DNA from: an uncultured Chloroflexia bacterium
GTDB taxonomy: Bacteria > Chloroflexota > Anaerolineae > Anaerolineales > Villigracilaceae
DNA length: 64,000 nt
Reading direction: 5' to 3'
NCBI GenBank assembly: GCA_963725805.1
Contig: CAVSAF010000023.1
Location: 88,201 to 152,200 of the forward strand
The number at the start of each line of letters is the position of its first letter. Position 1 is the first letter of the stretch. The notes under the pieces were generated by a model. The model had not been told where the DNA came from. It did no database searches and was given only the letters and a program-made list of their open reading frames with translations. Position numbers and translations under genes: made by a program. Below are positions 2,840 through 58,285 of this stretch, piece by piece.

Positions 2840-4588
2840 ATGAAAACCTTTCGCTATTCCTCCTCTCAATCGCTCCACGATGTTCCAAGCAGCCAGGCCT
2901 CCCAAAAGAGCCGGCCTCTCTATGCGATTCGTTCCAACCCGCATGGGGTAAACAGGTGGGACTGGCTGTTCGTCTTGATTTTCCTGGCTTTCGCGGTCGT
3001 ATATTTCCTGGGACGTTTGCAAGGGAACTATCCGGTGGTCATCCTGACGGGCGATGGCGGAAATATTGCCAGTTATGCGGCTGCCCTTGATCACCCCGCC
3101 TGGTTTAAGTCCGACCCGGCCCTGGGCGCCTCAAATAATATCGGCATCTATGCCACCATCCATATTCCCCTGATCCGTGCCCTAAATCATCTGACCGGCG
3201 ACTACGGGCTGGCTTATGCCTGGCTGGTTCTTCCACAGACATTCCTGCAGCTGCTCGGCTTTTACATCCTGGGGCGCGTGCTCTTTAAGAACCGCTTCTG
3301 GGCTTTTTTGCTGGCCTTCCTGACCGCCATGACGGTCATCAATGTCGGCCTGGGTGAGATCTGGGGTGTCTGGCAGGATGCACTGCCGCGCGTCACCTTC
3401 CAGTCACTGCTGCCCTTCCTGCTTACGCTGACACTGGTCTGGAAAGACCGTCCCGGGCGCTGGCCCTGGCTGATGCTCTTTGCCGGTCTGCTGGTCTACG
3501 TCCACCCGATCAGCGCTCCGGCCTGGGGACTGGCCGTCTGGCTCAGCCTCTGGTTGTTGCTGCCCAAAGGTTGGTCCAGGAAACGACGAATCCTCACCAT
3601 GGTGGGACTGGGTGCCCTGTTCCTGGCAGTGCTCATACCTTTTACAATCAATTACCTGTCCTACCGTGGGCGCGACCAGGGTGCCGATTACAACACGGTT
3701 ATGGCAATTCTGCAAGCATTTTTGCCTGCCAACCTGCTCAATGTTCCGGCGGCGCTGGGGAGTTTTTTGTGGAATATGACCCGCAGCCTGCTCCTGCCAG
3801 TGGCATTGACCGGGATTGCGGCCACCTGGTTGCTGAAAAAGGACGACCGCACACCGGTCAAGATCGTTTTCCTGTGGATGGCAGGTATTTTCATCACCAG
3901 TGTCTTAATTCCATTTGCCGAGCAGTTGGTCGAGCAACGCTATCAAATCCTACCGCTCGAAACCGAACTGGTACGGTGTATCCGTTATTTCGTGCCCCTG
4001 CTCCTGCTGTTCTGGATTTGGCCTCTGGCGGAATGGACGCCGCGCCTCTCTACTCCGCTTGCCCGCCGGGCGGCCATAGCCCTGGGGATCGTGCTCTTGG
4101 GCTTTTGGAGTGCCACGAACCGTCCCGCCGTGCGGGATATTTACCAAACCTTCATCTGCTTCACGAAAGCGCGCCTGGTATGCGCGGCGCCAACTCCATT
4201 AAGTGAACTCATCCTTACCCTGCGTACCGGGACCCAGCCTGGCGAAGGAGTACTTTTTTTCAACCAGGATCCAGCCTACACATCCCAAACCCTGAGTGTT
4301 CGTTACGAGGCTTTGCGCCCGCTGGTTTACACGTCGCGTGATGGCGGTCTGCTGAGTTATGCCAACCGCTCTGCTCTCCCGGCCTGGATGGAGACTACCC
4401 GGCAGTGGGAAGCCTTGCGAGCCATGAATGATCCGCAGGAACGGCTGGTGGGATTAATTTCCATGGCAGGAACGCTCAAAGCTGATTACCTCATCATAGA
4501 TTTCAAAATTGCGCCAACATTTCTGGCTGGACTGCCGGTGAAGGTCTTGCTGCATAATGATGGATACACCCTGATTGAATTAAATTAG
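2840..4588 (+). CDS. Polytopic membrane protein with soluble C-terminal domain (GT-C-like or polymerase-like, function unknown)
   Basis: ORF track gives 2747..4588. I prefer the ATG at 2840 (MKTFRYSS) because the upstream part lies in the divergent intergenic region. More than 10 hydrophobic segments are followed by a ~150-aa hydrophilic tail. Confidence 0.45.
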   Translation: MKTFRYSSSQSLHDVPSSQASQKSRPLYAIRSNPHGVNRWDWLFVLIFLAFAVVYFLGRLQGNYPVVILTGDGGNIASYAAALDHPAWFKSDPALGASNNIGIYATIHIPLIRALNHLTGDYGLAYAWLVLPQTFLQLLGFYILGRVLFKNRFWAFLLAFLTAMTVINVGLGEIWGVWQDALPRVTFQSLLPFLLTLTLVWKDRPGRWPWLMLFAGLLVYVHPISAPAWGLAVWLSLWLLLPKGWSRKRRILTMVGLGALFLAVLIPFTINYLSYRGRDQGADYNTVMAILQAFLPANLLNVPAALGSFLWNMTRSLLLPVALTGIAATWLLKKDDRTPVKIVFLWMAGIFITSVLIPFAEQLVEQRYQILPLETELVRCIRYFVPLLLLFWIWPLAEWTPRLSTPLARRAAIALGIVLLGFWSATNRPAVRDIYQTFICFTKARLVCAAPTPLSELILTLRTGTQPGEGVLFFNQDPAYTSQTLSVRYEALRPLVYTSRDGGLLSYANRSALPAWMETTRQWEALRAMNDPQERLVGLISMAGTLKADYLIIDFKIAPTFLAGLPVKVLLHNDGYTLIELN

Positions 4589-4599
4589 CTTGATCGATC

Positions 4600-5703
4600 A
4601 TGAAAATAGTCTGTGTTTCTTTGTCGCATATCCCCTCTGATACAGCCAACAGCATCCAGGTGATGAAGGTCTGCCAGGCTTTTTCGCAAATGCAGCATGA
4701 AGTGATTCTGCTTGTCCCCGGCCTCCAACCTGAAGAGCTGGAGTCCGGTGCGCTGCAACGCCACTATGGTCTTCACACACTCTTCAAGATAGAATGGCTG
4801 GCCGCCCGTTCACGCCGGCTCTTCCCATGGACAGCCGTCAGGCATGCCCGCCGCCTTGGAGCGGATTTGTTGTACGTTTGGCCGCTCCAGGCCGCAGCGC
4901 TGGGCTTGCTGGTTGGTATTCCATCCATGCTGGAGTTACACGATTTTCCTGCCGGAAGGTTTGGACCGTTCTGGTTGCGTCTCTTCCTGTCTATCCCTGG
5001 CCGTAAACGTCTGCTACCGATCACCAACGCGCTGCGAGTTGCGTTGCACTTGCCAACTGCACAAACCGTCATTGTCCCCGACGGGGTGGACCTTGAGCGA
5101 TATGTCTCATTGCCGGATCCCCTATCCGCCCGTCATGAACTTGGCCTGCCTGATCTCCCCACTGTACTCTGCACAGGCCATCTTTATGAAGGTCGCGGGG
5201 TCGACTTGTTCCTGAGACTGGCGGATAAATTTCCACAGGCCAGTTTCGTCTGGGTGGGAGGGCGTTCTGCAGACGTGCAAATGTGGAAAGAACGCGCTTC
5301 CGTACAAGGCCTGACCAATGTCATCTTCACCGGCTTTGTTCCCAACGAGCGTATCCCGCTATACCAATCTGCTGCGGAAGTTTTGCTGATGCCCTACCAA
5401 CGGATTGTGGCTACCTCAAGCGGCGGGAATACTGCGGCGATATGCAGCCCAATGAAAATGTTTGAGTATATGGCTGCCGGAGGTGCCATCCTGACCAGCG
5501 ACCTGCCTGTCCTGCGCGAAGTATTGGATGAGAATGCCGCGGTATTCTGCCCGCCGGATGATGACGGAGTGTGGGAGTCTGCTCTTGGTGAGTTGCTGGT
5601 GGACAAAGAACGCAGGCAGGCTCTTGGTCAACGCGCACGCCAGCTTGTGGAACAATATACCTGGATCGAACGCGGCCGGCGTGCATTGGAAAACTTTTGG
5701 TAA
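4600..5703 (+). CDS. GT-B glycosyltransferase, family 1/GT4-like
   Basis: N-terminus MKIVCVSLSHIPSDTANSIQVMKVCQAF and C-terminal half ...LLMPYQ...SPMKMFEYMAAGGAILTSDLPVLREV are typical of the GT4 E-x7-E region. Confidence 0.75.
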   Translation: MKIVCVSLSHIPSDTANSIQVMKVCQAFSQMQHEVILLVPGLQPEELESGALQRHYGLHTLFKIEWLAARSRRLFPWTAVRHARRLGADLLYVWPLQAAALGLLVGIPSMLELHDFPAGRFGPFWLRLFLSIPGRKRLLPITNALRVALHLPTAQTVIVPDGVDLERYVSLPDPLSARHELGLPDLPTVLCTGHLYEGRGVDLFLRLADKFPQASFVWVGGRSADVQMWKERASVQGLTNVIFTGFVPNERIPLYQSAAEVLLMPYQRIVATSSGGNTAAICSPMKMFEYMAAGGAILTSDLPVLREVLDENAAVFCPPDDDGVWESALGELLVDKERRQALGQRARQLVEQYTWIERGRRALENFW

Positions 5704-13911: not shown

Positions 13912-14391
13912 ATGAATATCCCAACAGAAACGGCGCGCGAAATGGCGCTGCTCGAAAATATTGAAGGCGATCCAGATATAACCCAGGCCTCCCTCGCCAC
14001 CCGTCTCGGCGTGGCGGTTGGAACGGTGAACTGGCATCTTAAACGCTTGATCGATAAGGGCTATGTCAAGATCAAGCGCGCTGAGCGCAAGAAACTGCGC
14101 TATATTATCACGCCTGAAGGCATCGCCTTGCGCGCCCTCCTTACAGTGGATTATATTGAACAGCAGTTCCTGCTTTATCGGAACACGCGCCAGCGTGTAC
14201 GCGAGCATTTGCAGGAGATAAAAGCAGCCGGTTTTGAAAAAGTCTCCATTCGTGGCGAAGGTGATGTGGCTGATATTTGCCGGCTTTCCTGCCTGGAACA
14301 AGGTCTAACCTTCACTTCAGACGATAATGCACCAGTCCTTGAAATTGTTGGATTCAGGGTGCTTTTACACCTGAATGGCAGCCAGGATTAA
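13912..14391 (+). CDS. Winged-helix (MarR/wHTH-type) transcriptional regulator
   Basis: ITQASLATRLGVAVGTVNWHLKRLIDKGYVKIKRAERKKLRYIITPEG is a classic HTH plus wing. It is the only DNA-binding protein recognised in the window. Confidence 0.7.
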   Translation: MNIPTETAREMALLENIEGDPDITQASLATRLGVAVGTVNWHLKRLIDKGYVKIKRAERKKLRYIITPEGIALRALLTVDYIEQQFLLYRNTRQRVREHLQEIKAAGFEKVSIRGEGDVADICRLSCLEQGLTFTSDDNAPVLEIVGFRVLLHLNGSQD

Positions 14392-14442: not shown

Positions 14443-15471
<1,029 letters not shown>

Positions 15472-15472
15472 G

Positions 15473-16357
15473 ATGGCTAGAACAGAGATGGCAAAATCCG
15501 AAATTGAACAAACCGATCCCGAAAAATGGGACATGGTCATCAGCCCAAAGCGCAACCTGTTTGACCTGCGCCTGCGGGAATTATGGCATTCGCGCGATCT
15601 GATCATGCTGTTTGTCCGGCGGGATTTCGTTTCCGTTTACAAACAGACCATTTTAGGCCCGCTCTGGTACCTGATCCAACCGCTGTTGACCACGATTGTA
15701 TTCACGGTTGTCTTTGGGAATATAGCCAAGCTGCCTACGGATGGGCTGCCGTCCTTCCTGTTCTACATGTCTGGAACGTTGATCTTTTCTTATTTTGCCA
15801 GCAGCCTTACCAAGACCTCCGAAACTTTTGTGAGCAATTCCAACCTGTTCGGCAAAGTCTATTTTCCTCGATTGACCGTTCCGGTGTCCATTTTATTCTC
15901 CAACCTGATCGCTTTTGTGATCCAATTCGGATTCTTCCTGGTATTCATGGCTTATTTTTTCTTGCGCGGAACGCCGTTGCACCCGAATTGGTGGATCCTT
16001 TTCACCCCGGTGCTGTTGCTGATGATGGCCGGCCTGGGCCTGGGATTTGGCATCATCGTGTCTTCACTAACGACCAAGTACCGTGACCTGCGTTTTCTGG
16101 TGCAGTTTGGGGTCCAGCTTCTGCAATACGTAACCCCGGTAATCTACCCGCTATCGGCCATGTCGCCCAAATACCAGGCGCTGATACGTTTGAACCCGCT
16201 CACATCTGTCGTCGAGGCTTTTCGCTATGCCTACCTCGGCTCCGGCTCCATAAACTTTATCCAACTCGGCTACAGTTTCGCCGTCATGCTGGTCGCGATC
16301 ACCATCGGTGCAGTGATCTTCAACCGTGTGGAAGCAACTTTCATGGATACGGTATGA
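15473..16357 (+). CDS. wzm: ABC-2 type polysaccharide export permease (Wzm/TagG-like), copy 1
   Basis: ELWHSRDLIMLFVRRDFVSVYKQTILGPLWYLIQPLL is the canonical ABC-2 N-terminal motif, followed by 6 TM helices. The start is set at ATG 15473 rather than ORF-track 15311, which overlaps fcl. Confidence 0.85.
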   Translation: MARTEMAKSEIEQTDPEKWDMVISPKRNLFDLRLRELWHSRDLIMLFVRRDFVSVYKQTILGPLWYLIQPLLTTIVFTVVFGNIAKLPTDGLPSFLFYMSGTLIFSYFASSLTKTSETFVSNSNLFGKVYFPRLTVPVSILFSNLIAFVIQFGFFLVFMAYFFLRGTPLHPNWWILFTPVLLLMMAGLGLGFGIIVSSLTTKYRDLRFLVQFGVQLLQYVTPVIYPLSAMSPKYQALIRLNPLTSVVEAFRYAYLGSGSINFIQLGYSFAVMLVAITIGAVIFNRVEATFMDTV

Positions 16358-17640
16358 GCACTACTGTCATCCAGGTGGAAAACCTGTCCAAGGCTTACCG
16401 GTTGGGCCAGATCAATTCCGGCACGCTCTCCGATGATATTAAAGTCTGGTGGGCCAAGGCACACGGCAAGCCCAATCCGCTGCTCAAGATAGGGCAGGAG
16501 AATCACTACAACCGGGAAGGCGAAACCCTTTGGGCGCTCAATGACGTCAGTTTTTCTGTTCGGCAGGGAAGTGTGCTGGGGATCATCGGGCGAAACGGGG
16601 CGGGAAAAAGCACCGTTCTTAAAATCCTCTCCCGCGTGACGGCGCCTACCAGTGGCCTGGTGAAAGTGAAAGGCCGGATTGCCAGCCTTCTGGAAGTGGG
16701 GACGGGATTCCACCCCGAATTGACCGGGCGTGAGAATATTTATTTGAACGGTGCCATCCTGGGTATGAAACGGTCGGAAATCGACCGCAAGTTCGATGAA
16801 ATCGTAGATTTTTCCGAAGTCGAGCAGTTCATCGACACTCCCGTGAAACGCTATTCTTCAGGGATGTACGTTCGCCTGGCTTTCGCGGTCGCGGCTCACC
16901 TCGAGCCTGAAATTCTGGTCGTGGATGAAGTGCTGGCAGTGGGAGATGCGGAATTCCAGCGGAAATCTCTCGGCAAAATGGGTGATGTGGCCCAGCAAGG
17001 TCGCACGGTCCTGTTTGTAAGTCACAATATGTCCGCAATCATGCGCCTGACCCAGGAGGCGATTGTGCTCGAGAAAGGTTGCCTGGCAATGCGGGCAGCC
17101 TCTCCTGAGGCAGTGGAATATTACCTCTCTGAAGGGGAGTCAAGGGCAGGGGAACGAATTTGGGATAGGGATGAAATTCCCTTGGATGCAGCACCTTTCC
17201 GACCGTCCGCCTTGCGCCTGCTTGATCAGAAAGGCCAGGTGGTGGAGACGGTTCGCTCGGTGGAACCATTTGCTGTGGAGATGGAATATTTCCTGGATGC
17301 TCCGCTGACGGGTTTGCGCATCGGCCTTTATCTTAATTCAACCCGGGGGGACCAGGTCCTGACCACTTTTGATACAGATGAAGGCGCCCGCTTTGAAAAA
17401 TACACCTCCCGCCCGGCTGGTCATTATGTCAGCCGCTGCGAATTCCCAAAGGATCTTTTGAATAACGGGCGGTATATTTTGGGCGTCAATGCCAGTTCCT
17501 ATCGCATCCGGCGTTACTTCATGGATGAGAAGGCCCTGGCTTTTAATGTGGATACTGCCGGGGCACCCGGGATGCAATGGTCCGAGCCGCGGCCCGGTGC
17601 ACTGCGTCCGCGCCTGGAATGGAAGATCGAGACGAAATGA
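16354..17640 (+). CDS. wzt: ABC exporter ATPase (Wzt/TagH-like) with C-terminal glycan-binding (Wzt_C-like) domain, copy 1
   Basis: Walker A GRNGAGKST, signature YSSGMYVRLAF and Walker B ILVVDEVL. A ~180-aa extra C-terminal domain (about 17104..17640) is beta-rich. The start has an ATGA overlap with wzm. Confidence 0.8.
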   Translation: MSTTVIQVENLSKAYRLGQINSGTLSDDIKVWWAKAHGKPNPLLKIGQENHYNREGETLWALNDVSFSVRQGSVLGIIGRNGAGKSTVLKILSRVTAPTSGLVKVKGRIASLLEVGTGFHPELTGRENIYLNGAILGMKRSEIDRKFDEIVDFSEVEQFIDTPVKRYSSGMYVRLAFAVAAHLEPEILVVDEVLAVGDAEFQRKSLGKMGDVAQQGRTVLFVSHNMSAIMRLTQEAIVLEKGCLAMRAASPEAVEYYLSEGESRAGERIWDRDEIPLDAAPFRPSALRLLDQKGQVVETVRSVEPFAVEMEYFLDAPLTGLRIGLYLNSTRGDQVLTTFDTDEGARFEKYTSRPAGHYVSRCEFPKDLLNNGRYILGVNASSYRIRRYFMDEKALAFNVDTAGAPGMQWSEPRPGALRPRLEWKIETK

Positions 17641-19229
17641 AACCGAAATCGCTCATCAAGAACGTGATGCGGGAGTTGCCATTCAGTGCGGATATCTACT
17701 GGTTATTGCGTGACCGCGATCATAAACCTCACAGCCGTTTTGATATGGAAGCCCTGGCAGGTGCGCTGCCAGAAATAATGGCACAGGCAAAGCCTTATAC
17801 AGAATCTGCTCCACAAGGCAGGAAGGTTTTTTTCTTTGCTTCCTGGCATTACTGGATCATGCACGCCGCCTTGAGCGGCCTCACTTTGCGTGGTCTGGGG
17901 CACGATGTAACCCTCGGTTACCTGCCATACGGTGATTATGACAAGCCAATCAGCCGTTTTGACTTGCGCCGGCAGGACTTGTACGCACACCAGATCTTGA
18001 AGAAGATGCAGCCCCTCTTGAAATCCATCTCTTTGCTGGATGTCAGACCAGCCGGTCAACTTCCGGAAGAACTGGCTGAAGCGCTGGAACAGCTCACGTT
18101 TATTGATACCCAATATATCAGGCAAAGGGAGGATGTAACCGGAACAGAACCGATCTATCTGCTTCGAAAGGAACGCAACCTTGAGGCCGCCCGCCGGGCT
18201 TTGGCTTATTTTGCGGAAAACCGCCCGGATGTGGTCATCATTCCGAATGGAATGATCCTGGAATACGGCGCCATTTACGAAACTGCCCGCCACCTCGGTA
18301 TCCCGACGGTCACTTATGAATTCGGGGAACAGGACCAGCGCATGTGGTTGGGCCAGAACCACCAGGTCATGTACTACGAATCTTTCAACGATCTGTGGAA
18401 GACCCGCCAAAACCGTAAATTGAATAAAGAACAACGCAACTGGTTGGAAGATTTCCTGCTTGGACGGCAGGGGCTTTCCAAGGGCGGGAAATTTGCCCAT
18501 TTATGGCAAAAGGCCGGCCGCGAGGGGGGTGCGAAAATTCGAGCTTCGCTTGGTCTGGATGACCGGCCGGTCGTGCTGTTACCAACCAACGTGCTGGGAG
18601 ATTCTGCCACACTTGGCCGGACAGTCTTCAGCCGGTCAATGACCGATTGGATTGAACAGGTAATCCCCTTTTTTGCGAACAGGTCCGAGGTCCAGTTGGT
18701 GGTGCGGATCCATCCCGCCGAATCCTGGACGGTCGGCCCATCGGTGGCGGAAATTATTTACAAGTTACTGCCAGAACTGCCCCCTCATATCCATCTGATC
18801 GGTCCCAAGGAGAAGGTCAACACCTACGACCTGATGGAAATGGCCGATCTGGCGTTGGTTTACACAACGACCGCCGGGGTGGAGATGGCGACACGCGGCA
18901 TCCCGTTGTTGGTGAGCGGGCGGGCTACCTACCGAAAACGGGGATTTACCCTTGATGCGGATAGCTGGGAGGAATATTTTCAGAAACTGGAACAAACATT
19001 GGCCAACCTGCCAGCCAATCGATTATCGCAAGAGCAAATTGACCAGGCCTGGAATTATGCCTATGCATATTTCCACGAGTTTACACGCCCTTTCCCATGG
19101 CACCTTGAGAAGATCATGGCTGATCTGGCCAAGCGCCCAATTTCTTATGTGCTCAGTCCGGAAGGCCGCCGGGAATATGAAACCACCTTCCAGGAATTGG
19201 CCGGGGCTCCAATTGATTGGCAGTCCTGA
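17637..19229 (+). CDS. KpsC/KpsS (Capsule_synth)-like GT-B protein; candidate CMP-ulosonic acid (beta-Kdo-type) transferase
   Basis: ...RPVVLLPTNVLGDSATL...FFANRSEVQLVVRIHPAE...TYDLMEMADLALVYTTTAGVEMATRGIPLLVSG echoes the LQVxxDSQ...LxxKxHPxD layout of Capsule_synth proteins. It is homologous to 38305..39942. ATGA overlap with the wzt stop. Confidence 0.45.
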   Translation: MKPKSLIKNVMRELPFSADIYWLLRDRDHKPHSRFDMEALAGALPEIMAQAKPYTESAPQGRKVFFFASWHYWIMHAALSGLTLRGLGHDVTLGYLPYGDYDKPISRFDLRRQDLYAHQILKKMQPLLKSISLLDVRPAGQLPEELAEALEQLTFIDTQYIRQREDVTGTEPIYLLRKERNLEAARRALAYFAENRPDVVIIPNGMILEYGAIYETARHLGIPTVTYEFGEQDQRMWLGQNHQVMYYESFNDLWKTRQNRKLNKEQRNWLEDFLLGRQGLSKGGKFAHLWQKAGREGGAKIRASLGLDDRPVVLLPTNVLGDSATLGRTVFSRSMTDWIEQVIPFFANRSEVQLVVRIHPAESWTVGPSVAEIIYKLLPELPPHIHLIGPKEKVNTYDLMEMADLALVYTTTAGVEMATRGIPLLVSGRATYRKRGFTLDADSWEEYFQKLEQTLANLPANRLSQEQIDQAWNYAYAYFHEFTRPFPWHLEKIMADLAKRPISYVLSPEGRREYETTFQELAGAPIDWQS

Positions 19230-19943: not shown

Positions 19944-20021
19944 ACAAGCTCAATGGCAAAGAATCATTGGATGCCAGGCAAGAAATATTTTGTCATATCA
20001 ACGAATTAAGGAGATGAATCC

Positions 20022-21005
20022 ATGACTCAAACACGTGTCCTTGTTACTGGTGCAGGCGGCTTCATTGGCCACCACCTGGTGACGTTCCTGCGCGAAAAAG
20101 GCTACTGGGTGCGCGGCGTTGACATTAAGAAGCCTGAATTCAGCCAAATGGACGCGGATGAATTTGAATTGCTTGACCTGCGGCGTTGGGATAACTGCCT
20201 GCAGGCCACGCGCGGAATCGATGAAGTCTATGGCCTGGCTGCTGATATGGGTGGGATGGGCTTTATTTCCTCCCACCATTCGCAGATCCTGCACAACAAT
20301 TCCCTGATAAATATTCATACGCTCGAAGCCGCCCGCCTCAACGGCGTCAAGCGTTACTTCTATACCTCATCCGCCTGCGTGTATCCTGAATTCAAACAGA
20401 CTGAAACAAACGTGGTCCCGCTAAAGGAAGAGGACGCCTATCCTGCCATGCCGCAGGATGCCTATGGATGGGAAAAGCTGGTCATGGAAAGGCTGTGTAC
20501 ACATTACCGGGAAGATTACGGCCTGGAAACCCGCATCGTCCGTTTCCATAATATTTTCGGCGAAGAGGGCACCTGGGAGGGCGGGCGCGAAAAAGCGCCG
20601 GCAGCCATGTCCCGAAAAATCGCTTTTGCCAAGTTGACCGGCAATCACGAGATTGAAATGTGGGGCGACGGCGAACAGACGCGTTCCTTCTGCCACATCA
20701 ACGATTGCCTGGAGGGCATTTACCGCCTGATGCGCTCCGATTACAAGTCCCCCCTTAACCTCGGTTCCGACCGCATGGTGACTATCAACGAGTTGGCCCA
20801 TATCATTGCCGGGATTGCCGGTATCGAGATCACCATCAAGCACATCTCCGGGCCGATGGGCGTGCGCGGCCGCAATTCAGACAACACCCGCCTGCGTGAG
20901 GTGCTCCAATGGGAACCGCAGCTTACCCTGGAAGCGGGTCTCCAACGAACCTATCCATGGATAGAAAAGCAGGTGGCGCAGAAACTGGAGATGGAACACC
21001 AGTAG
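20022..21005 (+). CDS. gme: GDP-mannose 3,5-epimerase homologue (GDP-L-galactose/GDP-L-gulose forming)
   Basis: Near-collinear with plant GME: VTGAGGFIGHHL, LAADMGGMGFI, SSACVYPEFKQ (catalytic Cys), QDAYGWEKL (Tyr), RFHNIFGEEGTWEGGREKAPAAM (Lys). Confidence 0.8.
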   Translation: MTQTRVLVTGAGGFIGHHLVTFLREKGYWVRGVDIKKPEFSQMDADEFELLDLRRWDNCLQATRGIDEVYGLAADMGGMGFISSHHSQILHNNSLINIHTLEAARLNGVKRYFYTSSACVYPEFKQTETNVVPLKEEDAYPAMPQDAYGWEKLVMERLCTHYREDYGLETRIVRFHNIFGEEGTWEGGREKAPAAMSRKIAFAKLTGNHEIEMWGDGEQTRSFCHINDCLEGIYRLMRSDYKSPLNLGSDRMVTINELAHIIAGIAGIEITIKHISGPMGVRGRNSDNTRLREVLQWEPQLTLEAGLQRTYPWIEKQVAQKLEMEHQ

Positions 21006-21007
21006 TT

Positions 21008-21907
21008 ATGGCATTTTTAACCATCTTTACGGCACCCAAGCCATTCACCAACCCACATATCGCTGTCATTCAGCGCAATGCTGTCCAGGCATGGAAGTTG
21101 CTGCCGGATGTCGAGGTCATCTTGATAGGCGATGAAGCCGGTATCCCGGAAGCGGCCAGGGAATTTGGCATTAAAAATGTGCCGGAGGTGGAACGCGACG
21201 AAAAAGGCATTCCTCTGGTCAATTCGGTTTTGGAGATTGGACACAAATATAGTGACAGTCCTTTCTTGTGCTATGCCAATGCTGACATGATCCTGATGTC
21301 GGACCTGATACGGGCTGCAAGACAGGTCTCGGAACAGGCCAGCGACTTCCTGGTGGTTGGCCAGCGCTGGGACCTGGACCAGAAAGAGCCGCTTGATTTC
21401 AGCGGTGATTGGGAATCCCGCCTGCGGCTGGACGTGGCCCAGCGCGGCAAGTTTTATTCACCCTGGGGCATCGATTATTTCATCTTCCCGCGCCATCTCT
21501 ATACCGATGTACCCAATTTCACCATTGGTCGCCCGGCCTGGGATAACTGGATGGTTTACCGCGCTCACACGACCTTTGGTATGGCCATCGACGCATCCCG
21601 GGATGTCCTGGTTGTTCACCAGAACCATGATTACAGCCACCTGCCTGGCAATAAGCCTCCCTATGGCTCGGACGTGGCCAGGTCGAACCTGGCCAAGGCC
21701 GGCGGGCGGAAACGTGTCTACAACATCCTGGATACCGATCACGAACTCGTCGGCGGGCGCATCCGCAGGCCGCAGGTCAGGCTCGTGCGCCTGCTGCGCC
21801 TCTTGGAGCGGATGTTCATCAACGACGAGCAAAAAGGTTGGGGGTGGTTGATCTCCGTGAAGCTTCAGCAGATGCAGCGTCCGCTGGCGGTAAAACCGAG
21901 GAGATGA
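21008..21907 (+). CDS. Conserved hypothetical protein, possibly a GT-A-like glycosyltransferase
   Basis: Start ATG 21008 (MAFLTIFTAPKPF) is 3 nt after the gme stop; ORF-track 20909 overlaps gme. ...CYANADMILMSD...GIDYFIFPR... is suggestive of a GT-A fold, but I do not recognise the family. Confidence 0.3.
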   Translation: MAFLTIFTAPKPFTNPHIAVIQRNAVQAWKLLPDVEVILIGDEAGIPEAAREFGIKNVPEVERDEKGIPLVNSVLEIGHKYSDSPFLCYANADMILMSDLIRAARQVSEQASDFLVVGQRWDLDQKEPLDFSGDWESRLRLDVAQRGKFYSPWGIDYFIFPRHLYTDVPNFTIGRPAWDNWMVYRAHTTFGMAIDASRDVLVVHQNHDYSHLPGNKPPYGSDVARSNLAKAGGRKRVYNILDTDHELVGGRIRRPQVRLVRLLRLLERMFINDEQKGWGWLISVKLQQMQRPLAVKPRR

Positions 21908-21910
21908 GCC

Positions 21911-22867
21911 ATGCGCATAGGTCATAACCCTGCCAGGTTTGTTGAAAAGGTGGCTCAACCGGCCGAAATTACTGTGACGGTCGTGAACTGTATCCCATTT
22001 TTGAGTGGATATTACGAGCAGAGTCTGGAGGTATTAAAGGCTTGCCTAAACAGCATTCATGCAAACACCCCGGAACCGCATGATTTGATGGTGTTCGATA
22101 ACCATTCCTGCCGGGAAGTGCGGGATTACCTAAAAGAAGCTTATGAGCAGGGTATTATCCAGTACCTGTTGCTTTCGGACAAGAATATAGGCAAGATCGG
22201 GGCCTGGAATTTCATGTTCGGCGCGGCGCAAGGCAAGTATGTTATTTTTTCCGACGGCGATATCACCTTCCGGCCGGGCTGGCTTGGGGCCTCTCTTGAA
22301 CTATTCGAAACCTTTCCGAATGTCGGCATGGTGACCGCCCGACCATATCGGGCCTCCCAGAGATATTCCGAGGCTACATTTGAATGGGCGCAGCAGCAGG
22401 GTCCGGGTGTGCTTGAAGAGGGGATATTCCTGGATTGGGAGACCGTTTTCGAACATGCGAGCAGCATCGGTGTGACTGAAGCGAAAGCACGTGATGACTA
22501 TTCAAAAGGACGCGACTACCGTCTGACCTATCATGGCAAGACTGCCTTCATCGGTGCAAGCCACTTCCAGTTCATGGCCCCGCGCGACCTGCTGCGCAAA
22601 GTCATCCCGCTTCCGTCGGAACAGCCCATGCGTGGGGAGCGCGGCCTCGATATTGCAGTTAACAAGATGGGCTGCTTGCGCCTGACGACCGAAATGCCGC
22701 TGGTTTTGCACATGGGTAACCGTCTGCCAGAATCCACCCGGACTGCCGGGACAGGACCAAGGCAAAAAAACCTGCTCCAGCGAATCTTGTGGTTGCCGGG
22801 CATCCGTCACTTTTTGCTGTGGTTGAATAATCGAATTTTTCAACTGTACTTTTTCAATGTGGAGTAA
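21911..22867 (+). CDS. GT2-family glycosyltransferase (paralogue of 24720..25760)
   Basis: ITVTVVNCIPFLSGYYEQSLEVLKACLNSI...LMVFDNHSCREV...FSDGDITFRPGW. It shares end-to-end architecture with 24720..25760 (GIAVLSYIPSHEGYFAQSLEILK...LLVFDNGSSLEV...YADGDVLFRPGW). Confidence 0.65.
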   Translation: MRIGHNPARFVEKVAQPAEITVTVVNCIPFLSGYYEQSLEVLKACLNSIHANTPEPHDLMVFDNHSCREVRDYLKEAYEQGIIQYLLLSDKNIGKIGAWNFMFGAAQGKYVIFSDGDITFRPGWLGASLELFETFPNVGMVTARPYRASQRYSEATFEWAQQQGPGVLEEGIFLDWETVFEHASSIGVTEAKARDDYSKGRDYRLTYHGKTAFIGASHFQFMAPRDLLRKVIPLPSEQPMRGERGLDIAVNKMGCLRLTTEMPLVLHMGNRLPESTRTAGTGPRQKNLLQRILWLPGIRHFLLWLNNRIFQLYFFNVE

Positions 22868-22870
22868 GCC

Positions 22871-23752
22871 GTGACCGAAGCTGTACCCGCCTGTCCATTG
22901 TGCGCAGATGACCGCAGTAAATTCTTCGAACAAAGCGAATTCCGCGGTCAAAATGTGACCTACCGGATCTGTGAGAATTGTGGACTGGTTTACCAATCCC
23001 CGCGCATGACCCAGGCCGAATCTACCGCTTTTTATCCGCAGGAGTACCGCCTTCTCAACGAAGGCAGTGCCTTGCCAACCCAGCGTAATCTTGCCAACCA
23101 GCGCGGGCGTGCAGCCTCGCTCCTGGCATTTTCCAGGCCTTCTATGGGTGCGATCAGGCGCCATCTGGATATTGGCTGTTCAACGGGGTTGCTTTTGCAG
23201 ATTTTTCAGGAGACCTACCATTGCCAGTCAATCGGTATTGAACCGGGTGAAGCCCACCGCGACAATGCCCGTAAAGCTGGTTTGACCGTTTACGCTTCGC
23301 TGGATGAATTGGAACGAAACGAGACAGGCCTCTTTGATCTGATCAGCATGGCTCACGTTCTCGAACATTTACCTGATCCAGTCAGGTATCTGGCCCACTT
23401 GCGCGATAACCTTTTGGAGCCCACCGGATTGCTCTTGATCGAAGTTCCTAATCTTTATGCTCACGATTCTTTCGAACCAGCCCATTTGGTCGCTTACAGT
23501 GCTCATACTCTAAGGCAGATAATGGAAAAGACTGGCTTTGAGATCCTTCGACTGGAAGAGCATGGACGGCCGCGTTCGGCCTGGCTGCCGCTCTATATCA
23601 CCTTGCTGGCCCGTCCAGGGTCGGATCCAAAAGAGACATTCCGCCTGCGACCCGAAGGAAGCGTGAAATTTAAGCGCCGGGTTGGTATTTTTTCCCGGCA
23701 CGTCCTTGAACGGCTTTTTAATCGATGGATATGGGACGCGAATGGAGAATAA
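22871..23752 (+). CDS. Class I SAM-dependent methyltransferase with N-terminal Cys4 zinc ribbon
   Basis: GTG start. CPLC...(x22)...CENC is followed by the SAM motif HLDIGCSTGLLL and then DLISMAHVLEHLPDP. Confidence 0.75.
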   Translation: MTEAVPACPLCADDRSKFFEQSEFRGQNVTYRICENCGLVYQSPRMTQAESTAFYPQEYRLLNEGSALPTQRNLANQRGRAASLLAFSRPSMGAIRRHLDIGCSTGLLLQIFQETYHCQSIGIEPGEAHRDNARKAGLTVYASLDELERNETGLFDLISMAHVLEHLPDPVRYLAHLRDNLLEPTGLLLIEVPNLYAHDSFEPAHLVAYSAHTLRQIMEKTGFEILRLEEHGRPRSAWLPLYITLLARPGSDPKETFRLRPEGSVKFKRRVGIFSRHVLERLFNRWIWDANGE

Positions 23753-53313: not shown

Positions 53314-54132
53314 ATGCAATCAACCCCGATTTATGATTCAGCCCAATTAATTCCGCACGCCCTCCAGGAACTGAAGGAAGCATTGAATTACCGTCACCTG
53401 CTTTTCCAACTGGTGCGACGTGATATTGTTGCTCGCTATAAACGCTCCTTCCTTGGCGTGGCCTGGACCATGCTCAGCCCACTGGGTATCATGCTGGTTC
53501 TCAGCTTCGTCTTTTCTCAACTGTTTGGCCAGATCCGCGCATACCCTGCCTACATATTATGTGGCCTGATGGCCTGGAATTTCTTTTCCCAGAGCACCAT
53601 GATGGCAATAAGCAGCCTGGTTTGGGGAGGCGGATTGCTGCAACGCATTTATATCCCGCGTGCTGCTTTTGGCATCTCCGCGATTGGATCGGGCATGGTT
53701 AACCTGATCTTATCCTTTGTACCACTCATTATTGTGATGGCCATCACAGGGGTATCGCTCCGGATCACAGTAGCTTTCCTGCCAGTTTCTCTACTATTAC
53801 TGGCCTGTTTCACCCTCGGCCTGGGCCTGACGATTTCGACACTGGCAGTCTATTTCCCTGATGTGGCCGAGATGTACCAGATCATCCTGACTGCCTGGAT
53901 GTACCTGACTCCGATCATTTATCCGGAGACGATCTTTCCGGCCAAATACGCATTGATCTTGCATCTAAATCCCTTATATTACCTGGTCAAACTCTGGCGC
54001 CTGCCATTGTATGATGGGCGTTGGCCCACTTGGGGTGAGATCTGGCCGGCCATGGTGATAGCTTTCGGGATGTTGTTGGTGGGATGGCTCATCTTTACCT
54101 CAAAATCCGATGAATTTGCCTATCGTGTCTGA
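53314..54132 (+). CDS. wzm: ABC-2 type polysaccharide export permease (Wzm-like), copy 2
   Basis: YRHLLFQLVRRDIVARYKRSFLGVAWTMLSPL motif plus 6 TM helices. Confidence 0.85.
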   Translation: MQSTPIYDSAQLIPHALQELKEALNYRHLLFQLVRRDIVARYKRSFLGVAWTMLSPLGIMLVLSFVFSQLFGQIRAYPAYILCGLMAWNFFSQSTMMAISSLVWGGGLLQRIYIPRAAFGISAIGSGMVNLILSFVPLIIVMAITGVSLRITVAFLPVSLLLLACFTLGLGLTISTLAVYFPDVAEMYQIILTAWMYLTPIIYPETIFPAKYALILHLNPLYYLVKLWRLPLYDGRWPTWGEIWPAMVIAFGMLLVGWLIFTSKSDEFAYRV

Positions 54133-54904
54133 GTCGCTTAGGATAATTGCTGAGGATTCTGTGACTAATCTTGTGGAGGCTGTTCATCTCGAGGCTGTTT
54201 CAGTACGCTACCGTGTGCCCAGCGAACGTGTTGGCAGCTTTAAAGAATATTTTATCCGCCGGCTGAAAGGCCAGGTCCAAATGCGTACGTTCTGGGCACT
54301 ACAGGATGTCAGCTTTGAGGTTAACCGGGGCGAGGTGTTCGGACTGGTAGGGGTTAACGGAGCCGGCAAGAGCACACTTCTCAAGGTGGTGGCACGCGTC
54401 CTGCGTCCCACCCGGGGCCGGGTGGTGGTTAGAGGCAGGGTGGCACCTCTGCTGGAGCTGGGCGCTGGTTTCCACCCGGAACTGACTGGTGAAGAGAATA
54501 TCTACCTGAACGGTGCCTTGCTGGGTTTCAGTCGCCATGAAATGCAGGAAAAATATGACCAGATCGTGGATTTCTCCGAACTGGGTGAGTTCATCAATGC
54601 TCCCATCCGGACCTATTCCTCTGGTATGTACGCTCGCCTGGGCTTTTCAGTCGCCACTGCCAGCGAGCCGGATGTCTTGATCGTGGACGAAGTTCTATCC
54701 GTCGGGGACGAGGCCTTCCAGAAGAAATGTGAGGCGCGTATCAATGCCTTTCGCCAACGCGGCGCAGCCATTTTGTTGGTCTCTCACACCATGGCCACGA
54801 TCGAGGAAATGTGCCAGCGGGCTGCCTGGCTGGATCATGGGACCTTAAAGGCCATTGGAGAGCCTACCCAGGTCATCCAGGCTTATCGGGAAAGGGGAAG
54901 TTGA
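54110..54904 (+). CDS. wzt: ABC exporter ATPase (Wzt-like), copy 2, no C-terminal binding domain
   Basis: Walker A GVNGAGKST, signature YSSGMYARLGF, Walker B VLIVDEVL. It ends about 20 aa after the H-loop (264 aa). The exact start is uncertain (23-nt overlap with wzm). Confidence 0.8.
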   Translation: MNLPIVSESLRIIAEDSVTNLVEAVHLEAVSVRYRVPSERVGSFKEYFIRRLKGQVQMRTFWALQDVSFEVNRGEVFGLVGVNGAGKSTLLKVVARVLRPTRGRVVVRGRVAPLLELGAGFHPELTGEENIYLNGALLGFSRHEMQEKYDQIVDFSELGEFINAPIRTYSSGMYARLGFSVATASEPDVLIVDEVLSVGDEAFQKKCEARINAFRQRGAAILLVSHTMATIEEMCQRAAWLDHGTLKAIGEPTQVIQAYRERGS

Positions 54905-54908
54905 ACTT

Positions 54909-55457
54909 ATGGTGTTCGAAAAGACCGACATACCTGATGTATTGATAATTCAACCCAAGGTCTTTGGTGATAAGCGGGGTTTCAACCTGGAAACTTTTCG
55001 CTCGGACATCTTTGCCAGATCAGGCATACCCGGACCTTTCGTTCAGGACAATCATTCCGGTTCCCAGCAAGGTATTTTACGTGGGCTGCACTACCAGATT
55101 CGCCAAAGTCAGGGAAAACTGGTCCGTGCTGTTGTAGGGGTGATCTTTGATGTCGCAGTGGACCTGCGGCGAAGCTCGCCGACTTTCGGCCGCTGGGTGG
55201 GGGTACTTCTTTCCGCAGAAAACAAGCTGCAGGTGTGGATACCGATGGGTTTTGCACATGGGTTTTATGTTTTAAGTGATTGGGCGGAAGTGATCTATAA
55301 AACCACGGATTATTATGCCCCTGAATGGGAACGCTCGCTGAAATGGAACGATCCAACCTTGGGGATAAAATGGCCGCTGCTGCATGGAAGGGAACCGGTT
55401 CTCTCGGAAAGAGATTCACATGGGAAATTATTATCCGAGGCGGAACTCTTCGATTAG
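54909..55457 (+). CDS. rmlC: dTDP-4-dehydrorhamnose 3,5-epimerase
   Basis: IPDVLIIQPKVFGDKRGFNLETF...QDNHSGSQQGILRGLHYQ...GKLVRAVVGVIFDVAVDLR...GFAHGF. Confidence 0.9.
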   Translation: MVFEKTDIPDVLIIQPKVFGDKRGFNLETFRSDIFARSGIPGPFVQDNHSGSQQGILRGLHYQIRQSQGKLVRAVVGVIFDVAVDLRRSSPTFGRWVGVLLSAENKLQVWIPMGFAHGFYVLSDWAEVIYKTTDYYAPEWERSLKWNDPTLGIKWPLLHGREPVLSERDSHGKLLSEAELFD

Positions 55458-55467
55458 GAGTTGCACA

Positions 55468-56556
55468 ATGAGGACCATTCTGGTTACCGGCGGCGCAGGG
55501 TTTATTGGCTCAAATTTCGTTCGTTACGTTTTAAGGACCCAGCCCGATTCTTTCGTTGTCAATCTGGATCTGCTGACCTATGCCGGCAGCCTGGAAAACC
55601 TGAAGGATTTGCCCTCATCTGAACGCTACGAATTTATTAAGGGTGACATTTGCGATCAATCCCTGGCAGAGGACATCCTTCGGCGCAATGCGGTGGATAC
55701 CATTGTACATTTTGCCGCAGAAACACATGTTGACCGGTCCATCATTGGCCCCGCTGCATTTGTGCGGACCAACATCTTTGGTACTTTTTCCCTTCTGGAA
55801 GCAGCCCGCAAGGTCTGGTTGGATGAAAACGAGGCAGATGGTAAAACTGTCCGCTTTCATCATGTGTCCACAGATGAAGTCTTTGGTTCGTTGACCGCGG
55901 ACGCACCTGCTTTCGAGGAGACTACTCCTTATTCCCCGAATTCACCTTATGCGGCTTCTAAAGCCAGTAGTGATCATCTGGTTCGCGCTTATTTGCATAC
56001 TTATGGCTTGCCCATCACGCTCACCAACTGCTCGAATAATTATGGGCCATACCAGTTCCCTGAAAAGCTTATTCCATTGGTCACTTTCAATGCATTGGAG
56101 GGAAAACCCTTGCCCATCTATGGCGACGGGAAACAGATTCGTGACTGGCTGTATGTGGAGGATCATTGCGAGGCCATCTGGCAGGTTCTGGAACATGGGC
56201 AGATTGGCGAGAGCTACAATATTGGTGGGAACAACCAACCCACAAATCTGGAAATTGTGGATACCATCTGTGAGATTCTGGACGAGTTGAAGCCTGGATC
56301 GCCCTATCACCCCCATGCCGGTTTGAAGAAATTTGTGAACGACCGGCCGGGACATGATCGGCGTTATGGCATGAATATTAATAAAATCAAGCGGGAATTG
56401 GGCTGGCATCCGAAATATACTTTGAGGGAAGGCCTCTTGAAAACAATTGCTTGGTATCTGGAGCATGATGATTGGATCAAGACCATACGTAAGCAAAAAG
56501 AATACCAGTCGTGGCTTGACCAGAACTATGCTGAACGTGTGGAGGGCCAGAAATGA
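55468..56556 (+). CDS. rmlB: dTDP-glucose 4,6-dehydratase
   Basis: [14 protein letters not shown]...[11 protein letters not shown]...[19 protein letters not shown]...[20 protein letters not shown] 55468 follows AGGAG. Confidence 0.9.
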
Positions 56557-57428
56557 AAGGAATCATCCTGGCGGGAGGCAAAGGAACACGTTTGCACCCA
56601 CTTACCCTGGCAGTGAGCAAGCAGCTCCTCCCGGTGTACGATAAACCTTTGATTTATTATCCGCTTTCAATGCTGATGCTTGCAGGAATTCGTGAAGTTC
56701 TGGTCATCAGCACCCCGGATGATCTGCCGCTTTTCAGACATTTATTGGGCAGTGGCCAGCAGTGGGGGATGCAGTTCAGTTATGCTGAACAAGCCGAGCC
56801 GCGCGGCTTGGCAGATGCTTTTATCGTCGGAGAGCAGTTTGTGGGTGAAAATCCGGCCTGCCTGATCCTGGGAGATAATATCTTCTTCGGCCACGGGCTG
56901 GCTGATCAAATGCAAGCGGCTGCAGCATTAAAAATGGGTGCACTGGTGTTCGCCTATCCGGTGCGCGACCCCCAGCGTTATGGCGTGATTGAATTCGATG
57001 ATCGCGGGCGTGCGATCAGCATTGAAGAAAAGCCAGCCAGGCCGCGCTCGAATTTCGCTGTTCCGGGGTTGTATTTCTACGATCATCGCGTGGTGTCCTT
57101 TGCCAGGGCACTCAAGCCCTCCGCACGCGGCGAGATCGAGATCACGGATTTGAACAAGATCTATCTTGAAATGGGCCAATTGCAGGTTCAACAACTGGGA
57201 CGCGGCATTGCCTGGTTGGATGCAGGCACGCATGAATCACTCTTGCAGGCGGCTAATTTTATCCAGACCGTGCAGGAAAGGCAGGGAATTATGATTTCCT
57301 GCCCGGAGGAGATTGCCTATCGAAAGGGTTTCATCTCCCGGGAAGCGTTAATCGCGATAGCTGGTTCGTACAAGCATAATGGCTATGGCGATTACCTGTT
57401 CCGGTTGATTGAGATGGAAGTTTCATGA
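56553..57428 (+). CDS. rmlA: Glucose-1-phosphate thymidylyltransferase
   Basis: [39 protein letters not shown]...RGLADAF...LGDNIF...YGVIEFD. Confidence 0.9.
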
Positions 57429-58285
57429 GACTGCTCCTTTTGGGCAACACCGGCCAGCTCGGTTGGGAATTACAGCGCACCTTGCAGCCACTTGGGGTTG
57501 TAGGCGCGTGCGATTACCCCGAGATTGATCTGGCAGATTCAGCCAGCATCCGGGAAACAGTACGTGGATGTCGCCCGGACGTGATTGTCAATGCCGCCGC
57601 TTATACCGCCGTGGATAAAGCCGAGAGTGAACCGGAACTCGCTGAAGCCATTAATAATTTCGGGCCGGGCCTGCTGGCAGAAGAAGCCCGTAATCTGAAT
57701 GCCATCCTTGTTCATTACTCTACTGACTATGTTTTCGATGGCGATAAAGGCATCCCCTATCAAGAGGCCGATCCTCCCCATCCAATCAATGTATATGGCG
57801 CGAGCAAACTGGCCGGGGAGCAGGCCATCCAATCAGTGGGCGGGGATTACCTGATATTTCGCACGGCCTGGGTCTACAGCCTTCGCCGGGACAGTTTCGT
57901 TTCAAAGGTATTGGGCTGGGCTCGAAATAACGAAACCCTGCGAATAGTGGATGATCAAGTCAGCAATCCCACCTGGGCGCGCATGCTGGCCGAGGTGACT
58001 GCACAGGTTCTAGCCCGGGGCATGGATTATATGCGGGAGCGGGCTGGTCTGTACCACCTGGCTGGAGATGGTTACACAAGCAGATACGCCTGGGCAAAAG
58101 AAATTCTCAGCCTTGATCCCAAAAAGCAGGAGCACAAAATGATACAATTGCTTCCCGCAAAGAGCGCTGATTTTCCCACCCCGGCGCAACGCCCACTTTT
58201 CTCGGCTTTGGAATGTGGAAAGTTCACCGCCTCATTTGGATTATGTTTGCCTGCATGGGCAAAGGCGCTCAGTTTGGCTATGTAA
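57425..58285 (+). CDS. rmlD: dTDP-4-dehydrorhamnose reductase
   Basis: [13 protein letters not shown]...[12 protein letters not shown]...STDYVFDG...YGASKLAGE...RTAWVY. Confidence 0.88.

Follow-up and report, generated by a model that had tools for sequence, protein, structure and literature searches.

A GDP-mannose 3,5-epimerase family gene in an ABC-transporter-dependent polysaccharide locus of a Chloroflexota bacterium

The stretch of Chloroflexota DNA analysed here, 64,000 nucleotides long and called the window below, carries a gene of the GDP-mannose 3,5-epimerase family (GM35E or GME; class CEP1 / NS-SDR) within a polysaccharide export locus. We put the probability at about 0.8 that this gene encodes an active extended-SDR GM35E, which would supply GDP-L-galactose (GDP-L-Gal) and some GDP-L-gulose (GDP-L-Gul) as donor for an exported cell-surface glycan. 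The reading frame is intact and runs uninterrupted through 327 codons behind a Shine-Dalgarno-like site. Its base composition is not foreign, as a GC content of 0.546 is unremarkable beside the 0.46-0.58 found across the surrounding 24 kb.

20008..20013, + strand: Shine-Dalgarno-like AAGGAG, 8 nt upstream of the GME ATG
20022..21005, + strand: GDP-mannose 3,5-epimerase (GM35E/GME) gene, 327 aa, assigned by ORF, structure-sequence search and BLASTP

The gene is a member of the GM35E family. When the protein was searched against the sequences of all PDB chains, plant GMEs came top, with 405 bits for 8sg0 and 397 bits for Arabidopsis 2c59. All other solved SDRs stayed at or below 103 bits, the runner-up family being a generic SDR (8rdg, 103 bits), with Fcl at 97 bits and the best GalE-annotated chain at 91 bits; chance could not produce such a match. 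Residues 4-320 aligned to the plant crystal-structure sequences with two small indels, and BLASTP against the poplar (Populus) GME, taken from the representative library, gave 55% identity over 321 residues. These alignments bear out the claim of an earlier note that the protein is collinear with plant GME, and the scores place it with the GM35Es instead of with the GalE or CDP-tyvelose-epimerase type of SDR that the note had named as the alternative. In line with an extended-SDR Rossmann fold, Pfam Epimerase covers residues 6-239 at 155 bits, while Pfam and NCBIfam contain no GM35E-specific HMM and otherwise returned only sub-threshold Fcl and GalE matches. This lack of a specific model explains why NCBI names the close homologues generically (NAD-dependent epimerase/dehydratase family protein). 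JGI calls them GDP-D-mannose 3',5'-epimerase, and proteins 96% identical to the window GME already carry the JGI name.

The residues that define a GM35E, given by a 2022 review in the numbering of the Arabidopsis enzyme (At), are the [ST]xnYx3K triad S143/Y174/K178, the pair C145/K217, R306, R243 and N203 (PMC8787198). The Cys-Lys acid/base pair is diagnostic in that GMER has His in place of the Lys and GalE has neither residue (PMC8787198). At R306 acidifies the catalytic Cys and is replaced by Lys in GMER (PMC8787198, PMC6678494), R243 binds the diphosphate, and N203 is conserved (PMC8787198). We read the corresponding window residues off an alignment to 2c59 (chain index minus 2), taking the signature set from PMC8787198 and the role of Arg306 also from PMC6678494. 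All eight residues are kept, as S117, C119, Y148, K152, N177 (At N203), K191, R221 (At R243, the diphosphate Arg) and R284, so that the protein agrees with the GM35E definition at every point that a sequence can test. Among 23 diverse family members that we aligned, S117, C119, Y148 and R284 were invariant, and N177, K152, K191 and R221 were at least 90% conserved. When the Fcl encoded in the window was aligned with GME, it showed His at the Lys191 position, the residue that PMC8787198 predicts for GMER. The catalytic Cys, Tyr and Lys contexts noticed earlier were found at aa 116-126, 146-153 (DAYGWEKL) and 187-196, and the acidifying Arg, diphosphate Arg, triad Ser and conserved Asn are kept in addition. 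Together these results support the identification of the protein as a collinear GME orthologue with the expected catalytic Cys, Tyr and Lys.

20049..20069, + strand: GAGGFIG, NAD-binding GxxGxxG (motif as defined in PMC6678494), aa 10-16
20367..20399, + strand: SSACVYPEFKQ, aa 116-126, with triad Ser117 (At S143) and catalytic acid/base Cys119 (At C145)
20463..20477, + strand: YGWEK, with Tyr148 and Lys152 (At Y174, K178)
20580..20609, + strand: GGREKAPAAM, aa 187-196, with catalytic base Lys191 (At K217)
20859..20885, + strand: GVRGRNSDN, with Cys-acidifying Arg284 (At R306)

The plant and Methylacidiphilum enzymes, about 50% identical to each other, both catalyse the GM35E reaction (PMC6678494), and the steps are established at the level of the family (PMC6678494, PMC8787198). 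By homology with the Arabidopsis enzyme, the window protein would hold NAD+ tightly bound and use Tyr148, Lys152 and Ser117 to oxidise C4 of GDP-D-mannose. Inversion at C5 and C3, by deprotonation and reprotonation, would fall to Cys119 and Lys191 as acid and base, with Arg284 lowering the pKa of Cys119. Re-reduction of the C4 keto group would give GDP-L-galactose and some GDP-L-gulose, and an irreversible glycosyltransferase step would pull the unfavourable equilibrium towards product.

There are several known enzymes with which the window GME can be compared. Arabidopsis AtGM35E/GME (2C59, 2C54, 2C5A, 2C5E) and plant 8SG0 have the same fold and catalytic-core length, and share almost identical boxes: ADMGGMGF, SSAC(V/I)YPEFKQ, PQDAYG(W/L)EKL, GGREKAPAA, QTRSF and GVRGRNSDN. 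The window protein differs in lacking the plant N-terminal extension of about 25 residues, in having a canonical GxxGxxG where Arabidopsis has GxxGxxA, and in a 4-residue insertion after K199; it is encoded in a polysaccharide locus, whereas plant GME belongs to ascorbate metabolism. The GM35E of Methylacidiphilum fumariolicum SolV (I0K0X9; Gevaert et al. 2019, PMC6678494) is likewise bacterial and stand-alone, with about 320-330 aa and the Cys/Lys/Arg set. It too adjoins glycosyltransferase and methyltransferase genes, and its proposed role is in envelope glycan synthesis (PMC6678494). It comes from Verrucomicrobiota and not Chloroflexota, and the export system at the window GME depends on an ABC transporter. 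The M. fumariolicum enzyme is 50.5% identical to the Arabidopsis enzyme (PMC6678494) and the window GME is 55% identical to poplar GME, figures that refer to different plant references. Fcl/GMER, including the copy at 14449-15471, shares with GME the extended-SDR type, a GDP-hexose substrate, the chemistry of 3,5-epimerisation and a catalytic Cys. It differs from GME in its His base instead of Lys, its 4-keto-6-deoxy substrate and its net reduction at the end, and is only about 30% identical (97 bits). Finally, BlmG of the bleomycin pathway and the A201A-pathway GM35E of actinomycetes, likened here by description, are bacterial homologues supplying L-gulose or L-galactose; they sit in secondary-metabolite clusters, in contrast to the window GME, which has no such cluster around it.

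The family, its mechanism and its occurrence in bacteria are already published, and the window gene opens no new question about them. The window GME belongs to a lineage that is abundant in soil and sludge, and its identity to a plant enzyme exceeds the value published for the only bacterial GM35E yet characterised; this gives it modest value as a biocatalyst candidate. It is also modestly useful as a marker from which L-galactose could be predicted in the surface glycans of Chloroflexota.

The surroundings of the gene point to the use of its product. From 13912 to beyond 33000 all genes lie on the + strand, in the order MarR-fcl-wzm-wzt(Wzt_C)-KpsC-like-AcT-GME-299aa-GT2-MeT-pyruvyl transferase-GT2. 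A 480-aa transferase, two CMP-ulosonate cytidylyltransferase-like genes, a NeuB-like synthase and further genes follow the second GT2.

13912..14391, + strand: EPS-associated regulator of the MarR family, with which the one-strand row begins
14449..15471, + strand: GDP-L-fucose synthase of the Fcl/GMER type (Cys/His pair), carrying an N-terminal insertion
15311..16357, + strand: Wzm-type ABC permease, given as its longest ORF, with the true start probably further downstream
16354..17640, + strand: Wzt ABC ATPase with a C-terminal Wzt_C glycan-binding domain
17577..19229, + strand: KpsC/KpsS-like (Capsule_synth) transferase, 550 aa
19254..19943, + strand: hexapeptide O-acetyltransferase, between the KpsC-like gene and GME
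21008..21907, + strand: 299-aa GT-A-fold protein of an unnamed family, candidate glycosyltransferase, starting 2 nt past the GME stop
21911..22867, + strand: GT2 glycosyltransferase
22871..23752, + strand: SAM methyltransferase
53314..54904, + strand: second Wzm/Wzt pair (separate export module)
54855..58285, + strand: rmlC, rmlB, rmlA and rmlD (dTDP-L-rhamnose), all above curated cut-offs

A Wzm-like permease (63 bits) and a Wzt-like ATPase (174-188 bits) carrying Wzt_C (33 bits, cut-off 30.4), beside GT2 and KpsC-like genes, make this an ABC-transporter-dependent (Wzm/Wzt) polysaccharide locus. The strongest promoter match is upstream of the MarR-type regulator. Around GME and between the genes of the row we found no convincing promoter or terminator, and terminator-like sites were only as frequent as expected by chance. 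GME is probably co-transcribed with the Wzm/Wzt(CBM) locus. As it is co-directional with that locus, its product would be a glycosyl donor for the glycan exported there.

This setting also argues against the role of the plant enzyme, as the first committed step of a plant-like ascorbate (Smirnoff-Wheeler) pathway. Orthology to the plant enzyme is the sole support for such a role, which is barely conceivable for a gene embedded in a glycan export locus, in a genome (79% complete) where no lactone oxidase or dehydrogenase with an ALO domain (PF04030) was found.

The earlier note had grouped GME with fcl and rmlCBAD into one locus with an unusually rich supply of L-sugars. The fcl gene is real. 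The rmlCBAD genes lie directly behind the second Wzm/Wzt pair, 34 kb from GME, and therefore most likely serve another polymer. L-Fucose and L-rhamnose are in any case commonplace, and gmd, on which Fcl depends, is absent from the 64-kb window and present on contigs 16 and 10; it is L-galactose or L-gulose that would be unusual. ManC-type genes, which make the GME substrate GDP-mannose, occur elsewhere in the genome.

Most plausibly, GME would add L-galactose (6-hydroxy-L-fucose) as an extra or alternative residue beside the GDP-L-fucose supplied by Fcl. Fucosyltransferases are reported in the literature to accept GDP-L-Gal, and this, together with a GME-NodZ-like fusion (P0150), lends indirect support to partners of the fucosyltransferase type. 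In the literature we found no report of an L-galactose-containing glycan for this lineage. The same enzyme could instead feed GDP-L-gulose, the C5 epimer, to a gulosyltransferase that draws it off, as proposed for BlmG and Thermoplasma lipids. Characterised GM35Es do release both products, at about 80:15:5 Man:L-Gal:L-Gul (PMC6678494), and L-gulose is used by bacteria and archaea (PMC6678494, PMC8787198). We regard this as unlikely: L-Gal is the major product of every characterised GM35E, the locus carries Fcl and nothing gulose-specific, fucosyltransferases are known to accept GDP-L-Gal, and the GME-NodZ-like fusion exists elsewhere.

Supply of GDP-L-Gal by GME would be an addition to a locus that exists without it. 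Each of the seven relatives of the order that we compared yielded the Wzm/Wzt skeleton, and the gene order fcl-wzm-wzt-KpsC-like-GME-299aa-GT2-MeT is kept in five syntenic Chloroflexota MAGs. Three relatives without GME have the same skeleton, with a variable block of 6-9 kb at the site of the sugar-supply genes, and GME is therefore an added sugar-supply gene. Fcl was present in 52 of 61 sampled genomes of the order. GME is thus accessory, present in a minority of the relatives sampled, within a widely kept locus supplied with GDP-L-fucose. The hexapeptide O-acetyltransferase is absent at this position in all five syntenic MAGs and appears to be a mobile decoration gene. In genome G175 a 52% identical O-acetyltransferase copy is found elsewhere in the locus.

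The 299-aa protein encoded directly after GME is a candidate user of GDP-L-Gal. It has 5080 homologues, annotated as hypothetical everywhere, and nearly all of the best 120 are exactly 299 aa long, which places the true start of the gene at 21008. Neither Pfam nor NCBIfam gave a family match. A language-model search found its nearest clusters to be "glycosyltransferase family 2-like", and its AlphaFold model, of mediocre quality (pLDDT 62.7, with residues 11-100 at 75-91), weakly matches GT-A-fold transferases and nucleotidyltransferases, in keeping with a generic GT-A fold only. Many of its close homologues are on the same contigs as GME homologues. The idea of a dedicated GME partner is weakened by its distribution in three families of the order, where it occurred in 24/24, 9/9 and 1/1 sampled genomes (34 in total), most of them without GME; being present with or without GME, the family does not depend on it. 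A narrower proposal is that, in a Chloroflexota sublineage, GME was recruited into the widely conserved, fucose-using wall-polysaccharide locus directly upstream of the 299-aa gene, and that one sub-clade of the 299-aa family (at least 72% identical, repeatedly on GME contigs) is a GDP-L-galactose-dependent transferase. This is speculative, with perhaps an outside chance of being correct. If true, it would mean a prokaryotic L-galactosyltransferase of an uncharacterised family, and wall glycans bearing L-Gal in a phylum whose envelope is little studied.

The resemblance to plant GME does not reflect a special relationship. A quick ML tree of 112 rows, for which Fcl served as the root and whose deep nodes are weakly supported, places a clade of poplar and Trichomonas apart from the window GME. 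We therefore rejected a sister relation to plant GME, or an origin by gene transfer, with the caveat that the deep nodes are poorly supported; by its placement, the window protein is not specifically plant-like by descent. Its high identity to plant GME arises because branches are short on both sides.

The genome to which the window belongs, a 3.77-Mb bin that is 79% complete, encodes three distinct GME-family members. Paralogue A is the window copy. All three keep the Cys/Lys/Arg set. They fall into three separate clades of the tree, so that the window copy did not arise by recent duplication.

Contig 16, L002:1489-2460, - strand: paralogue B, 323 aa, 51% identical to the window copy
Contig 11, L003:1190-2245, + strand, and contig 19, L004:1471-2526, - strand: paralogue C, 351 aa, 49% identical to the window copy

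Paralogue B is two genes from gmd (contig 16, 505710-506666). Near it are a Wzt-like ATPase fragment and a gene combining CoA_binding_3 with a DegT aminotransferase. The region is another glycan locus, equipped with a GME-type enzyme of its own. Paralogue C lies outside any glycan-export cluster, in a row of genes for a sugar-binding protein, GME-C, a family-less 272-aa protein, a 292-aa double cytidylyltransferase-like protein (RfaE domain II-like, 78 bits), ManC (334 bits) and an RbsD-like pyranase. This row may represent an undescribed GDP-sugar side pathway. The locus, about 5 kb long, is seen twice near the ends of contigs 11 and 19 (L003, L004, L012, L014, L015) with about 99.7% protein identity, and the contig 11 copy has its ManC match divided between two frames (3943-4311 and 4313-4996). 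The doubling probably stems from strain-level redundancy within the bin or from faulty assembly.

It is possible that the three divergent genes serve three different GDP-sugar pathways. Three clades leave room for sub-functionalisation, and with it for a GM35E-fold enzyme whose substrate has shifted, such as a GDP-heptose or GDP-6-deoxyhexose 3,5-epimerase. For the window copy such a shift is quite improbable: it is the closest of the three to plant GME (55%), every box motif is nearly identical, and no heptose or 6-deoxy supply genes adjoin it. If any copy has changed substrate, paralogue C is the likelier candidate.

Rarity of GME in bacteria, also claimed in the earlier note, holds when genomes are counted and fails for the family as a whole. 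A family member (E <= 1e-70) was present in 30 of 401 sampled genomes of the phylum and in 4 of 24 in the window's own family, only 2 of these having a 90% orthologue. The family itself is large and extends across many bacterial phyla and some archaea, and work published in 2019 had already characterised a GM35E from a bacterium (PMC6678494). When one genome was scanned for each prokaryotic species, there were at least 571 confirmed relatives, of which the best 80 are 57-88% identical to the window GME and come from Chloroflexota, Acidobacteriota, Planctomycetota, Gemmatimonadota, Actinomycetota, Bacteroidota, Myxococcota, Pseudomonadota, Cyanobacteria, Patescibacteria, and Methanoregula and Micrarchaeota bins. 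An exhaustive search of representatives gave 1158 clusters (50% identity level) at E <= 1e-30, and the best 150 of these all scored above 258 bits. In metagenomes, a word-indexed search returned more than 8000 close homologues; the best 120 clusters are 85-96% identical, many of them from Anaerolineales or Chloroflexota bins.

More than 100 clusters at 85-96% identity indicate that GME is under strong purifying selection. The gene's patchy distribution is the one observation that would fit a decayed or inactive relic, a very improbable reading given the intact ORF with its Shine-Dalgarno site, the retention of all catalytic residues and the many independent contigs with 85-96% identical copies. 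The window GME is also 70-79% identical to copies in Acidobacteriota (Pyrinomonadaceae), Planctomycetota, Rhodothermales, "delta proteobacterium" bins and one Methanoregula bin. Such identity across phyla is far above the expectation for vertical descent, and points to strong constraint, horizontal transfer, or both.

In other phyla, GME is again found among genes for polysaccharide synthesis. Its neighbours at 80 loci included Wzz/tyrosine kinase (19), WecG/TagA (19), GT4 (17), Bac_transf (15 + 7) and Wza (8), and carbamoyltransferase and UDP-glucose/GDP-mannose dehydrogenase genes were also recurrent. A general linkage of GME to gmd, fcl and manC was rejected: within 6 kb, the same 80 loci had fcl 6 times, gmd 4 times and manC not at all.

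Several natural partners are fused to the GME domain (P0134, P0163, P0150, P0140, P0132, P0151). They comprise a UDP-glucose/GDP-mannose dehydrogenase, a NodZ-type fucosyltransferase (P0150), SAM and FkbM methyltransferases and a NUDIX hydrolase. The dehydrogenase fusion hints that some of these proteins may make a GDP-L-hexuronate. Ten further family representatives (P0138, P0147, P0180, P0186, P0205, P0211, P0228, P0233, P0235, P0252) are 645-760 aa long and match the query in two stretches, with the split near residues 117, 145 or 180. In P0138 a LAGLIDADG domain lies between the two GME halves. This arrangement suggests that the split representatives may contain inteins at conserved active-site positions.
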